A stretch of DNA of 16,769 bases from a candidate division WOR-3 bacterium (GCA_027053075.1 JALUEE010000034.1:1-16769), one strand, 5' to 3'. Numbered from the stretch's first letter, positions 3 through 4,058 are shown. Notes: generated by a model from the letters alone, not told the origin. Made by a program: numbers and translations.

Positions 3-146
3 CTCGAGAAGCTTGAAAAACTGGGTAGGGCTGATGTGGAGTATGTTGACCCATTTCGGGTAATCAAAAAATTCCGGCTCTCCCGCCCCACCATTGTGTA
101 TGCCAACAGCCTAAGCCACAAATCCGGGGCAGGGTTTAAGGACTAA
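3..146 (+). CDS. 3' end of an unidentified protein (partial, runs off the window edge)
   Basis: Frame is open from position 3 to TAA at 144-146: LEKLEKLGRADVEYVDPFRVIKKFRLSRPTIVYANSLSHKSGAGFKD*. Convergent with the next gene. No motif recognised. Confidence 0.35.
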   Translation, partial: LEKLEKLGRADVEYVDPFRVIKKFRLSRPTIVYANSLSHKSGAGFKD

Positions 147-212
147 CTGTACATGGGAGTATAAGACAGGTGAGGGATTCCTCTTAAAAAACATCCCGGA
201 ATGAATGAAAAC

Positions 213-3020
213 TTATTTTCCAAGTATCTTTAAAAGTTTTTCGGCTTCGTCGTAGGCCACTTTGTAAGTATAGTCGGGAGGGCCGTCACAGGTGGCAAGT
301 TCGTGGGCCTTTAGAGCATGCTCACGGGCCTTTTCTTTATCTCCTTCAGCCAGGGCTATCTCAGCAAGGAAGAGGTGCACATCTGCGCCCTGAAGCACAT
401 ATCCACTGCGTTCAGTGATGATAAGAGCCTCTTCTGCAAGATTCAGGGCCTCTTTGATTCTACCCTGATCGTGGCGCAGGCGGGCCAGGGCCAATAAAAT
501 GTTGGCCTCATGATCTACCATGTTGATGGCTCGGCAGCGGCGCAGGGCCTCGTTCAGGTGGCGCTCGGCCGCGGGCAGGTCGCCGTTGAGGCGGTAAGCC
601 GCGCCCAAAAGCCAGTGGGCGCGCACATAGTCGCGCTCTACGGGGTAAGTGGTACGGGCGTCCTCGTCAGCCAGTTCCAGGGCGCGGCGGGCGGCGCGCA
701 GGGCTTCGTTGGCCCGCTTCTTGGAAAAGCGCTCCCGCGCCATGAGCAACGCCCGCAGGGCTCGGTAGGCCCAGACGATGCCCTGGGATTGCACCTCCTT
801 TTGCTTCTCGAACATCCCCAGCGCGGCGTCCAGTTCCGCTTCCGCCTCGGTCCAGCGGCCGCGGTAGGCCAGCAGCCGCCCCAGTTCCTGGTGGCCGATG
901 GCCTCGTCGAACGCATCCTCGATCTCGCGGCAGAGGGCGATGCGGCGGCTCAGGTTGGCCTCCGCGGCCCGCAGCGCGCCGATTTTCATCTGGTCGTCGG
1001 CCAGGTTCCCCAGGCCGATGGCGAGGTTTTTCTTGTCATTTGCATTTTCGTCAAGGCGCGCTGATATTTGCAACAAAGGAATGGCACGGGCCGGTTGACC
1101 GGAAAGACTATAGGAGTTTGCCAGTTCATTCGCTGCCCACGACTGGGCGCGCTCTGACTTCAGCCGCGGCGGCCTGTCCTCCCCGTCGGGGAACAGGGCG
1201 CGCAGGAGTTCGATGATGAGTTGGTAGGCGCCGAATTGGTAGTAAAGAGGCGTGGGGACGAGCCGTGCTTGGAGCAACTCAAACGCTTCGTCGTACCGCC
1301 CGGCCCGCACGGTGTGGTGGTACAGTTCAATCACCGGGGTCAGGTCGTCTAAGGTCTGTACCCGCTGGGGCGGGGGCACGGCGGCGAAGTAGTCCCGCAG
1401 GCGGGCGTGGGCGGCGGTGCGCTCGTCCCCGGTCAGGCGGTCGTAGGCATAACGGCGCACGATGGGGTGCAGGTCGTAGCGCCCACGGGCGGGGTCGTAG
1501 TGCACCAGGCCGCGGGCGACCAGGTCGCGCAGGGCGGCGTCCAGGTCAACCTCCTCCCCGGCCACGGCCTGCAGGGCATCGTACTCCACCGGCCCGCGGA
1601 AGCAGGCGATGACCCCCAGCAGGCGTTGGCGGTCGGGGGGCAGGCTTTCGTAGGCCCGCTGGAGCACGTGGTGCTGGCGCTGCTTGAGGTCACCTGTCAC
1701 ATCGAGCCCCTCTGCAACGGTTATATCTCCCGGTTTTCGTGGGTCCTTCAAAATCAATCCTGCCAGCAGAGCCAGACTGAGAGGGTGATAACCATAACGT
1801 TCAGCCACGACTTCCATCTCAGCTCGATTGCCGCGAATACCACGGGCACGGAAATAGGCTACAGCATCATCAGGGGACAAACCCTCCAATTCGACTTCCC
1901 GGCAGTTGGCAAGAAGGTCATCACCATGAGGCGATTCCAGGATGCGTGGTCGAAGACGTGTAGTAATCAGTACTTTTCCACTCAGATGAGGATAGGTGGC
2001 AACTTTTCTGAGGAAATCCTCAGCGGAAAGACTTATACAATCTCGCTGGCGGGCATGCTCCTCCTCATCGGAACTTACACTTTCATCGCCAAGATAGGGA
2101 GCCATCATTGTATTATACGCCCGGAGTGCCCGCTCAAAGCCATCCAAGACAAGCAGGACGCCTGGTTCACGCAGGCGATTCAATAAAGCCTCCACCTGTT
2201 GCGAGGGCAGGGCATCTACCTCCTCCATACCGAGATATTTCAGGGTGGCTTTCAGAAAAGATTCAAACTCACGCTGGTCATAAAAACTCCACCAGACTAT
2301 TTGCGGCCATTTGGTCATATCAACGTCATTCTTCAGCCAGTACCATACCAGAGCACTCTTTCCAAATCCCCCAAGTGCGCGCAATACTAAGATATTGTGT
2401 TTATCATCCTCATTAAGCCATTCATTTAACATCTTCCGCTCATTCCCCCTGCCGGTGAAGTGGTCAGGTAGAGGATAGGGATGAGGAAGGAACCATGAGA
2501 AAGTATTCCCTGTGTCAGAGTCATTGTTTGAATCTGGCTTAGCAGGTGGAGAAGCAGATGGATTAGGAGCTCCCAGAGCTTTGAGCAACTTCTGCCACTC
2601 CAGATTCCAGTCATAGGGATCAACAAAATTTAAATACGTTAGATATTTTAAACGTAGTGGTAGATTGCATCGCTCCTTGAGCATGGGAATCAGTCGGCGC
2701 TTCTGGTTGGCCGGGTCCAGGGTTTGTAACATGAGAGATTCAAACTCAGTCCAGTCACTTTTCAGGTAGGCTGGGGTAAGCACAAGCACGGTCTTCCGGC
2801 TTTTCTCTATACATCGTTCCATCTCTTTCACACCGGGCGCACCAGCCTTGAAATCACGAAAATCAATACAGACACGCAGGCCAGCTCTCCTAAGTGCTGG
2901 GAGTAGTTCATTTCTCACCCAGTCACTGTCTTTCGAGCTGTACGAAATAAATACATCATACTTATATCCGCCCATCTTTTGCCCCTTGGAATTTTTATCC
3001 AAATTTATTTTTGTTCCCAT
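213..3020 (-). CDS. TIR domain - STAND (NB-ARC-like) NTPase - winged helix - TPR protein (NLR-like, probable anti-phage defence)
   Basis: TIR: YDVFISYSSKD..RDFKAG..IEKSRKTVLVL..SDWTEFE. NTPase: FTGR..E lead-in, Walker A ALGGFGKS (2355-2378), Walker B LLVLDGFE, sensor-1 VLITTR, GYHPL (GxP), YDLHPIVRRYA (MHD-like). C-terminus is TPR-like helical repeats. True start may be ATG 2975 (M16), which has AAGGGG upstream; ATG 3020 is only 3 nt after a TAAAAT. Confidence 0.9.
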   Translation of the reverse strand: MGTKINLDKNSKGQKMGGYKYDVFISYSSKDSDWVRNELLPALRRAGLRVCIDFRDFKAGAPGVKEMERCIEKSRKTVLVLTPAYLKSDWTEFESLMLQTLDPANQKRRLIPMLKERCNLPLRLKYLTYLNFVDPYDWNLEWQKLLKALGAPNPSASPPAKPDSNNDSDTGNTFSWFLPHPYPLPDHFTGRGNERKMLNEWLNEDDKHNILVLRALGGFGKSALVWYWLKNDVDMTKWPQIVWWSFYDQREFESFLKATLKYLGMEEVDALPSQQVEALLNRLREPGVLLVLDGFERALRAYNTMMAPYLGDESVSSDEEEHARQRDCISLSAEDFLRKVATYPHLSGKVLITTRLRPRILESPHGDDLLANCREVELEGLSPDDAVAYFRARGIRGNRAEMEVVAERYGYHPLSLALLAGLILKDPRKPGDITVAEGLDVTGDLKQRQHHVLQRAYESLPPDRQRLLGVIACFRGPVEYDALQAVAGEEVDLDAALRDLVARGLVHYDPARGRYDLHPIVRRYAYDRLTGDERTAAHARLRDYFAAVPPPQRVQTLDDLTPVIELYHHTVRAGRYDEAFELLQARLVPTPLYYQFGAYQLIIELLRALFPDGEDRPPRLKSERAQSWAANELANSYSLSGQPARAIPLLQISARLDENANDKKNLAIGLGNLADDQMKIGALRAAEANLSRRIALCREIEDAFDEAIGHQELGRLLAYRGRWTEAEAELDAALGMFEKQKEVQSQGIVWAYRALRALLMARERFSKKRANEALRAARRALELADEDARTTYPVERDYVRAHWLLGAAYRLNGDLPAAERHLNEALRRCRAINMVDHEANILLALARLRHDQGRIKEALNLAEEALIITERSGYVLQGADVHLFLAEIALAEGDKEKAREHALKAHELATCDGPPDYTYKVAYDEAEKLLKILGK

Positions 3021-3061
3021 TTAATTTTAAAGCCCCTCAACTGTGAAATCATGTCATTCAC

Positions 3062-3210
3062 GAACGTGTTCAGAAAATCTCAGAGTATGAGAATTTGAAG
3101 AGGAACCTCCCTACTTTCCTTCTTCCCAACTCACGAAAGTGCGTGAGGAAGAGAATGGGAAGGGGAACCTCAGGATTGGAAGAATTTGATGTGTTTTCGA
3201 AAATATCCTC
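3062..3210. repeat. Intergenic MITE/REP-like element, copy A (degenerate; core inverted relative to copy B)
   Basis: Left end GAACGTGTTCAGAAAATC resembles the ends of copies B and C; right end TTTTCGAAAATATCCTC is degenerate. Reverse complement of the core 3121-3153 (CTCTTCCTCACGCACTTTCGTGAGTTGGGAAGA) aligns with the copy B hairpin CCCCCACGCACTTTGTGCGTGGGGGAGA. Confidence 0.55.
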
Positions 3211-3229
3211 TAAGTGAATCTCCCATTTA

Positions 3230-3258
3230 TAGTCAATATGTGGGGTTTGCTATATTAT
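3230..3258 (+). promoter_or_regulatory. Candidate sigma70 promoter for the ZIP gene
   Basis: TAGTCA(3230-3235)-17 nt-TATTAT(3253-3258), 8 nt before ATG 3267; no Shine-Dalgarno. Confidence 0.35.
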
Positions 3259-3266
3259 AAAATGTC

Positions 3267-4058
3267 ATGGTTGATTCGCTTGTTAATCTATTTGTACATC
3301 TTTCTGGTGATAAGGCTATCTGGCTAGGGTTCTGGGGTGGCCTTACAACAACCCTGTTCAACACATTCGGTGCCCTGCTTGTGATGTTTTTCCGTAAACC
3401 CTCAGACCGATTCATGGATGCATCACTGGGCTTTGCTGCAGGTGTAATGCTCGCAGCAAGCTTTACAAGTCTCATCATACCGGGTGCGGAAATGGGAGGA
3501 ATTGTGCCCGTTTTAATCGGTATCCTCATAGGCTCCTTCTTTCTTGACCTATCTGACCATCTTATTCCGCACATGCACAATATTATTGGTACTGAGGGAA
3601 TCCATCCGGAAAGAGTAAAAGCCGTCTGGCTTTTCATAATCGCTATTACCCTTCACAACATGCCCGAAGGGCTGGCCGTGGGTGTAGCCTTTGGGGCAGA
3701 TAGGATAAGGGATGCCATTGTTCTCATGATTGCCATCGGAATCCAGAACATTCCAGAGGGATTTTCTGTCTCGCTCTCCGCTGTAAGTGCGGGATATAGC
3801 AGGGGATTTTATGCAGTTTATACGGGTATTCGCTCAGGACTCGTGGAGATACCACTTGCCATGCTTGGAGCGTGGGCAGTTAATCAGGTAAAGGTGATAA
3901 TCCCCTACGCCATGGGATTTGCAGCAGGTGCCATGCTCTACGTTATAAGTGATGAAATCGTCCCTGAAACCCACCGAAAGGGACACGAGAGATACGCGAC
4001 ATTTGGTACCATTATCGGTGTGGTTATCATGCTTTATCTGGACGTTGTATTCGGATAG
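3267..4058 (+). CDS. ZIP family divalent metal (zinc) transporter, GufA/ZupT-like
   Basis: GFAAGVML, His-containing loop DHLIPHMH, TM4 ITLHNMPEGLAVG, TM5 IGIQNIPEG, FAAGAMLYV..DEIVPE; about 8 hydrophobic helices. Confidence 0.93.
   Translation: MVDSLVNLFVHLSGDKAIWLGFWGGLTTTLFNTFGALLVMFFRKPSDRFMDASLGFAAGVMLAASFTSLIIPGAEMGGIVPVLIGILIGSFFLDLSDHLIPHMHNIIGTEGIHPERVKAVWLFIIAITLHNMPEGLAVGVAFGADRIRDAIVLMIAIGIQNIPEGFSVSLSAVSAGYSRGFYAVYTGIRSGLVEIPLAMLGAWAVNQVKVIIPYAMGFAAGAMLYVISDEIVPETHRKGHERYATFGTIIGVVIMLYLDVVFG

Follow-up and report, generated by a model that had tools for sequence, protein, structure and literature searches.

A TIR-STAND-TPR gene of a WOR-3 bacterium and its chromosomal family with interchangeable effectors and a variable sensor

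Described receptors and the WOR-3 protein

Receptors that combine an effector, a STAND ATPase and a tetratricopeptide repeat (TPR) sensor in one gene are known from several lines of work. The one-gene TIR-STAND-TPR protein of P4-like satellites, a TIR-NOD-like receptor (TIR-NLR), was validated as an anti-phage defence, and relatives are described that swap the TIR for SIR2 or nuclease heads, with NAD+ degradation as the proposed output (Rousset 2022, PMC9122126). Lee 2026 reports 589 STAND clades and Avs types numbered up to 24 (PMC13581612). For multicellular bacteria, Dyrka and Kaur gave a general, computational description of NB-ARC/AP-ATPase-TPR NLRs (bioRxiv 10.1101/2020.01.06.895854; PMC7159879; PMC8195603), a literature to which an amyloid preprint also belongs (bioRxiv 10.1101/2024.11.07.622273). 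Plants have TNP proteins, in which cell killing by maize TNP-IIa is reported to need the TIR Glu and the P-loop (PMC9806590). Here we describe a protein of this layout, encoded at positions 213 to 3,020 of a 16,769-nucleotide stretch of DNA (the window) from a candidate division WOR-3 bacterium (GCA_027053075.1, JALUEE010000034.1:1-16769). It is probably an intact, laterally gained one-gene NLR-like receptor that works as an Avs-like abortive-infection NADase switch. The gene is genuine and a recent gain, its design is known and published, and the novelty that a preliminary description attached to it was overrated, since a protein of this design had been validated in 2022. The less ordinary part is its family, which is unnamed, chromosomal, located outside defence islands, and exchanges effector and central sensor independently. 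Model confidence below is the predicted local distance difference test (pLDDT), and protein positions are given in amino acids (aa). The domains are as follows.

213..3020, minus strand: TIR-STAND-TPR gene, 935 aa (start may be Met16)
2571..2963, minus strand: TIR domain, aa 20-150, with the putative catalytic Glu94 at 2739-2741 (Pfam TIR_2, 84 bits)
2496..2570, minus strand: disordered linker, aa 151-175, the family's effector-swap boundary (from pLDDT and the starts of homologue matches)
1881..2495, minus strand: nucleotide-binding domain, aa 176-380, Walker A at 2355-2378 (motif conservation; best fold match PH0952, 6MFV)
1431..1880, minus strand: helical and winged-helix domains, aa 381-530 (GxP-like and MHD-like motifs)
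1155..1430, minus strand: arm region, aa 531-622; its conserved block at aa 559-574 is the left edge of the family's variable cassette
216..1154, minus strand: TPR sensor, aa 623-935; its first four repeats vary and its last ones are conserved

The open reading frame (ORF) is uninterrupted throughout its 935 aa, and the alternative start at Met16 gives 920 aa (P0002). The TIR_2 match covers aa 23-145, far above its cut-off of 28 bits, and includes W90-T-E-F-E94, with Glu94 on a helix (aa 89-101) of an AlphaFold2 model made with 120 sequences (mean pLDDT 90.6; disorder only at aa 1-17 and 156-170). The Glu of WxxxE, which we take to be the catalytic position of NADase TIRs, is retained in 105 of the 118 homologues having a TIR. 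Judged by this motif, the TIR is a candidate NADase, a Glu in the WxxxE helix being necessary and not sufficient. The linker has pLDDT below 50 at aa 156-170, and many homologue matches begin at aa 175-177. Five STAND motifs could be read from the sequence, namely Walker A (215-222, with Lys221), Walker B (289-296), TTR (353-355), GxP-like (410-414) and MHD-like (516-519), and their key residues were 98-100% conserved in 119 homologues. Helical repeats span aa 623-934, with Pfam TPR families matched over aa 754-909. The preliminary description, which had read an intact WxxxE, a linker at about aa 150-175, a full STAND motif set and about 300 aa of TPRs, was thus confirmed in its domain reading; in the Pfam comparison that it named, TIR_2 and TPR matched and NB-ARC stayed below the cut-off (aa 198-293, 18 bits), a cut-off that several other family members exceed, unlike the window protein. 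The protein is an AP-ATPase/NB-ARC-like STAND NTPase, with a core of nucleotide-binding, helical and winged-helix domains followed by the arm and a TPR sensor. The terminal TPRs (window 216-640, aa 795-935) carry residues conserved among 103 divergent members (Cys829, Arg830, Glu838, Arg871, Tyr874, Asp880, Cys911 and Tyr919), which may possibly form a fixed ligand, metal or autoinhibition site.

None of the Avs and NACHT models of PADLOC 2.0 and NCBIfam 20 matched the window protein at an expectation value (E) of 0.01, and none of the curated models covers the family core, so the earlier decision not to assign the protein to a named Avs type holds. Among 16 relatives the sole Avs match, to Avs1b, came from a trypsin head and scored 30 bits with the cut-off set at 1500, and the model for the TPR protein of the FxSxx-COOH system (NF040586) gave 58 bits where more than 300 are required. 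With the Avs1-24 and other defence-associated clades of Lee 2026 the protein shares the effector-STAND-TPR layout, interchangeable effectors and a sensor of more than 400 aa (PMC13581612); it differs from Avs in that no model or structure matches the core (Avs3 only at E 5e-8, TM score 0.19) and in its lack of linkage to islands. The family may be one of the 198 clades or 684 sensor clusters of that survey, and may likewise fall within its Avs7-24 or its 90 sensor clusters. The Rousset TIR-NLR is alike in joining TIR, STAND and TPR in one gene; its ATPase, unlike the NB-ARC-like one of the chromosomal window family, is annotated as AAA_35-like (Table S3) and its genes are prophage-borne. No match to a Rousset TIR-NLR model was obtained from PADLOC or NCBIfam, where the presence of such a model is unverified, and the two systems are compared by description only. 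The NLRs of Dyrka and Kaur share with the family the ATPase class, the repeat type, the taxa (Chloroflexi, Cyanobacteria and some archaea) and the heads (TIR, CHAT, EAD, bDLD and amyloid-like motifs); the accessible text of these papers does not single out the window family or mention cassette recombination. Plant TNP proteins have the same TIR-NB-ARC-TPR order with TTR, GLPL and MHD motifs, again compared by description; they are eukaryotic, and their similarity to bacterial proteins is stated to be limited to the nucleotide-binding domain (PMC9806590). For the ATPase-arm-TPR core the best structural match is PH0952/MalT (Lisa et al. 2019, PMC6468293; PDB 6MFV); unlike the window protein, these are MalT-type regulators, 16% identical and without a TIR. 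By analogy, the protein may work like an Avs or TIR-NLR receptor of no assigned type.

Gain and mosaic structure of the gene

The host genome has 2.44 Mb, 44% GC and a completeness of 95%. Among 47 RecA matches the two that bear names are Ca. Hydrothermota and Ca. Hydrothermales, which makes WOR-3 the likely phylum. The labelled sequencing runs containing DNA of the window were hydrothermal-vent metagenomes, and none of the runs listed as containing it was an RNA run. The gene is divergent from a ZIP gene at 3267-4058 (Pfam Zip), as described before. The earlier remark that no partner gene is in view was in itself uninformative, because the window is an entire contig (C34) that ends 212 bp beyond the stop codon. 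Contig C81, which shares 127 bp with this left end, has a PPDK_N gene in convergent orientation; the TIR-STAND-TPR gene therefore stands alone, and in that respect the remark was right. A partner beyond the contig end was thereby rejected: apart from PPDK_N, C81 offers only a small gene, PIN-like by eye. The following rows give the inserted segment and the blocks of the mosaic, defined by G+C content at third codon positions (GC3).

150..3187, no strand: segment found in place of the 272-bp spacer that sister species G004 has; its ends lack a direct repeat, and no integrase was seen
1137..1691, minus strand: high-GC3 block A, codons 444-628 (GC3; GC-rich homologous contigs stop matching at 1682)
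1029..1136, minus strand: host-like GC3 patch, codons 629-664, first TPR repeat (GC3 0.42; bridged in run X6)
471..1028, minus strand: high-GC3 block B, codons 665-850 (GC3)

In the sister species (94% nucleotide identity) the PPDK_N and ZIP genes lie 272 bp apart, forming an empty site, and contig ends with the empty allele were found in runs X1, X2 and X10. The gene was present in none of five congeners, and of the phylum's 272 genomes (likely WOR-3) only 3 had a core match at E 1e-30. Together these observations make gain of the gene the likely direction of change. No terminal repeats or target-site duplication were seen at the segment ends, a Pfam scan of the window proteins returned no integrase, and promoter and terminator scans gave no signal above chance. 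The insertion site and the mosaic sensor were both absent from the preliminary description.

The gene contains the most GC-rich of the genome's 7,744 intervals of 1.2 kb (0.66 against a mean of 0.44). GC3 is 0.43 over codons 2-443, 0.83 over codons 444-850 and 0.45 over codons 851-935, with the patch at codons 629-664 lying inside the GC-rich part, the two blocks of which stand near 0.85; host ORFs average 0.46, and the change-point score was the highest among 241 long host ORFs. An assembly chimera of a WOR-3 contig and a GC-rich Chloroflexota homologue could in principle produce such a gene or such a GC mosaic, given a metagenome-assembled genome, a gene close to a contig end and GC-rich homologues abundant in the same habitat. 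This explanation was rejected and is very improbable. The probable source run tiles 41-3500 with zero differences, and contigs from independent studies bridge the junctions: run X4 spans the left end (117-383), the right end (2448-3245) and the junction at 1690 (1593-1874, 7 differences), and X6 spans the low-GC patch (936-1190). Among the pieces listed, the junction at about 470 was bridged only in the probable source run. Every junction is in frame. On this evidence the gene is a mosaic and not an assembly artefact.

Homologous GC-rich contigs of four runs cease to match at 1682. In contigs of X4 and X9, which match closely on the ATPase side, the 162 bp at 1483-1644 have diverged, a pattern pointing to alleles that have other patches, the host of those contigs being presumed. 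The donor of the GC-rich blocks was not found; the nearest protein comes from an Anaerolineae genome. In segment trees P0275, from a vent Anaerolineae, was nearest for the ATPase and for the GC-rich blocks alike, with no incongruence for the gene. Compared with the family's typical cassette, the GC-rich blocks of this gene extend deeper into the winged-helix domain.

Several further features were noted around the locus. A hairpin-like element lies at the right edge of the insertion (window 3085-3190; L059:2392-2528), and the element at the corresponding spot in G004 matches dozens of places in the host genome. The PPDK_N protein (L063:685-3117, plus strand, about 800 aa) ends at window 146 and has a receiver-like N-terminus by eye. 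A few kb past C81, contig C40 holds transposase-like ORFs, IS630-like by eye (L064:820-2282). At window 8219-9511 (minus strand) a 430-aa multiheme cytochrome (Multi-haem_cyto and related families) lies beside a pair of GAF histidine kinase and LuxR-type regulator.

Heads and sensor exchange across the family

Of 7,996 candidates scored against the full-length window protein, 1,713 matched at E 1e-10, the best of them 55-62% identical over their full length, and the ATPase-TPR core matched 1,173 clusters (50% identity) at E 1e-30. The 37 genome loci belong mostly to Chloroflexota, with Planctomycetota, Verrucomicrobiota, an acidobacterium, a Thermoplasmata archaeon and others represented as well, and cyanobacterial members were also matched. 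WP_106255555.1 is a mesophilic relative. The family is large, unnamed, chromosomal and mainly from Chloroflexota. The sole other strong member in the host's phylum (L039, G009:C26:6593-9427) has a hydrophobic, membrane-helix-like head in place of the TIR and is surrounded by housekeeping genes.

A head census was made on the top 150 cluster representatives, with Pfam run on 51 picked ones and membrane and amyloid-like labels given by eye. An N-terminal extension was present in 115 of them. Clustering assigned 31 of these heads to TIR, 17 to DUF4062, 6 to trypsin, 4 to metallophosphoesterase, 3 to HNH, 2 each to Mrr and alpha/beta hydrolase, and 1 each to CHAT, kinase and GT4-conflict; EAD1, EAD7, bDLD1, a few helix-turn-helix (HTH) domains, membrane helices and short amyloid-like peptides were additional heads. 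NADase-type heads (TIR or DUF4062) thus account for 48 of the 115, DUF4062 being reported as an anti-phage NADase (bioRxiv 10.64898/2026.09.04.749371). Enzymatic heads make up 68 of the 115 by our own clustering and effector list, a share above the 50% at which Lee 2026 calls a clade defence-associated on effector content alone (PMC13581612). N-terminal effectors are interchangeable across the family. Short Gly/Asn/Val-rich, amyloid-motif-like N-termini were seen at L007:9863-10100, L020:1134-1400, L021:9815-10100 and L030:9806-10100, with no amyloid partner gene beside them among the few ORFs inspected. The Thermoplasmata archaeon carries six family copies in tandem (L014, G272:C271:19384-36482); their heads differ, DUF4062 and HNH occurring among the five copies inside the fetched locus, and several copies have GC-shifted C-terminal ends. 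L082:7369-10730 encodes a 666-aa reverse transcriptase and an MzaA-like protein beside a mosaic family member.

Throughout the family, exchange affects the central TPR cassette (aa 575-790), which lies between conserved flanks. Of 63 intact family genes, 24 showed GC3 change-points (22 of 58 with five identical pairs removed), and 14 of the 37 breakpoints fell at aa 520-599 and 10 at aa 800-879, near two conserved blocks. In a neighbour-gene control the counts were 8/32 for neighbours and 14/26 for family genes (Fisher p 0.03), several control breaks lying at crude ORF starts. Over 119 proteins the pairwise identity of the ATPase correlated with that of the C-terminal TPRs at rho 0.65 and with that of the cassette at only 0.23-0.32; in 156 close pairs the cassette was 68-72% identical and the flanks 86-89%. 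Synonymous divergence of the cassette exceeded that of both flanks in all 15 close pairs (14 genes; mean 0.41 vs about 0.20), and six disjoint pairs agree, the 15 not being independent. From aa 176 to 565 the proteins of L075 and L080 show almost complete identity, which drops to 42-93% over aa 566-805; L076 and L093 form another natural pair in which the ATPase is identical and the cassettes differ. The raised synonymous divergence indicates imported sequence and not selection only. An incompatibility permutation test on 12 close relatives detected recombination in the cassette and in the ATPase (p 0.0005 each), and exchange is therefore not confined to the cassette, which has 2.5 times more informative sites per residue than the ATPase in these relatives. 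Since the data come mostly from metagenome assemblies, an individual pair could be a chimera, but breakpoints that are shared speak against chimerism as a general cause. No DNA motif was seen at the cassette edges beyond protein conservation. On this sequence evidence, the middle of the sensor is likely exchanged by recombination. No paper was found that names the family or describes sensor cassette exchange in prokaryotic STAND proteins, though subscription papers and supplements could hold one; for bNACHT01 a rapidly diversifying C-terminal region is reported, the word recombination not appearing in the accessible text (Kibby, bioRxiv 10.1101/2022.07.19.500537).

Mode of action and rival explanations

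The core fold was closest to the STAND-TPR protein PH0952 (E 7e-17), followed by RPP1, LGN, Avs3, CED-4, Apaf-1 and MalT; a shared fold shows no function. The sensor model (pLDDT 97.6) had APPBP2, MalT domain III, Rap and LGN as nearest folds (Z 23-30), mostly peptide-binding TPRs. The window protein was the only TIR_2 match in the host genome and no SIR2_2 protein was found there; no relay partner is therefore evident, and direct NAD+ depletion is the simplest output. As to Thoeris-type signalling through a separate effector gene, no partner was seen next to the gene, and a STALD search gave no match; the effector types covered were SIR2_2 and STALD. On the pattern of characterised STANDs, the resting protein would be ADP-bound and autoinhibited by arm and sensor, for which PH0952/MalT autoinhibition serves as the analogy (PMC6468293). 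An invader protein, most likely phage-derived, would bind the TPR sensor, the fold of which suggests a protein or peptide in the TPR groove as the ligand. Binding would open the ATPase and lead to ATP exchange and oligomerisation, as in the activation described for Avs (PMC13581612), and the clustered TIRs would then cleave NAD+ at Glu94. What is recognised may change when the cassette is swapped between the two conserved blocks, which lie near aa 560 and aa 800.

A number of observations weigh against a phage-sensing NADase. The neighbour scan covered 4 kb by single-gene matches on crude ORF calls, with the tandem array left out and generic ABC-ATPase, subtilase, FtsX, GlgB and TnpB matches excluded from the count of defence neighbours; it took in 197 ORFs at 35 genome loci and 148 ORFs at 36 of 70 metagenome loci. 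Neighbours were mainly housekeeping genes. A plausible defence neighbour occurred at 3 of the 35 genome loci (SoFic, PycTM and PIN-TPR-GreABC) and at 2-3 of the 36 metagenome loci, overall about 5-6 of 71, a figure not comparable with the DefenseFinder null of Lee 2026. The family loci are clearly not defence-island-like, and these counts do not support the island enrichment by which the preliminary description proposed to judge the gene. Eight Anaerolineales copies (L001, L015, L021, L023, L029-L032) lie upstream of a carboxyl-transferase gene, a position that suggests a stable locus, and where the start is intact their heads differ (TIR, helical domain, short amyloid-like peptide). Relatives were absent from viral contigs (two patterns searched) and from phages, and plasmids gave one weak partial match only; carriage by mobile elements was rejected on these results. 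The closest solved STAND is a MalT homologue and not an Avs, and the solved TIRs closest to the window TIR are those of TLR1, TLR15, TLR6 and TLR2, TLR TIRs being scaffolds; TLR1, the closest, has the same Glu motif. The TIRs lacking Glu form a supported monophyletic clade of 13 of 118, with Gly or Ser in its place and the rest of the domain conserved, and are possible adaptor TIRs (P0006, P0008-P0012, P0017, P0018, P0027, P0028, P0031, P0043 and P0054; loci L075, L076, L080, L084, L086 and L088). To our knowledge, every characterised Avs receptor recognises a single conserved phage fold, unlike this hypervariable sensor, and most tested Avs receptors were picked to work in E. coli. The earlier proposal of a phage-sensing one-gene NADase thus keeps the support of its stand-alone TIR-STAND-TPR layout, of swapped defence-type effectors and of the recent gain, and lacks that of island enrichment.

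The same switch with the same NADase output might instead be triggered by a non-self signal from competitors or kin, such as a toxin, an injected effector or an incompatibility protein, in the manner of the fungal NLRs that act in heterokaryon incompatibility; the WOR-3 copy would then be a passenger from filamentous Chloroflexota. Most genome matches are indeed from Chloroflexota, the sensor is polymorphic and recombining, the loci lie outside defence islands, the family has the adaptors EAD1, EAD7 and bDLD1 that Kaur 2020/2021 tied to multicellular bacteria (PMC7159879, PMC8195603), and a language-model search listed fungal STAND-TPR clusters, as a lead only. Yet no locus showed a linked incompatibility partner, a vent bacterium with a small genome keeps the gene intact and several populations have alleles of it, and every tested prokaryotic STAND with such effectors in the accessible parts of the cited literature is anti-phage, which leaves a non-phage trigger rather unlikely, if the strongest of the alternatives. 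Somewhat less likely still is a TIR that does not deplete NAD+ and serves as a scaffold recruiting another TIR protein or produces cyclic ADP-ribose as a signal to a distinct effector. The TLR-like window TIR, the 13 relatives without Glu, and the non-enzymatic adaptors and short amyloid-like peptides that hold the head position elsewhere in the family would fit such a role; the absence of a second TIR_2 protein and of SIR2_2 proteins from a 95%-complete genome speaks against it, as does the commonest alternative effector, DUF4062, a shown NADase. That the protein is a non-immune STAND reporting a metabolic or developmental ligand, like MalT, AfsR or PH0952, appears improbable: the closest folds (PH0952 and MalT domain III), HTH heads on a few members and the stable locus in Anaerolineales agree with it, but the window protein has no DNA-binding domain, and the family shows traits that mark conflict systems, namely nuclease, protease and NADase heads, a patchy occurrence, a tandem array of six copies and recombination in the sensor.

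An Avs-like abortive-infection NADase switch therefore remains the preferred reading of the window gene, which alone is an ordinary kind of finding; the weight rests on the family's size, its location and its sensor exchange. More tentatively, and as a possibility that we regard as doubtful, the family may be a cross-phylum bacterial and archaeal NLR family with a sensor reprogrammed by recombination, in which the cassette between the blocks at about aa 560 and aa 800 is exchanged via a shared gene pool and the effector is swapped independently. The result would be a combinatorial repertoire outside defence islands that may recognise variable invader or non-self proteins and not one conserved phage fold. 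The pair L075 and L080, with an identical ATPase and a different cassette, makes a recombination-driven change of specificity in a prokaryotic NLR testable.

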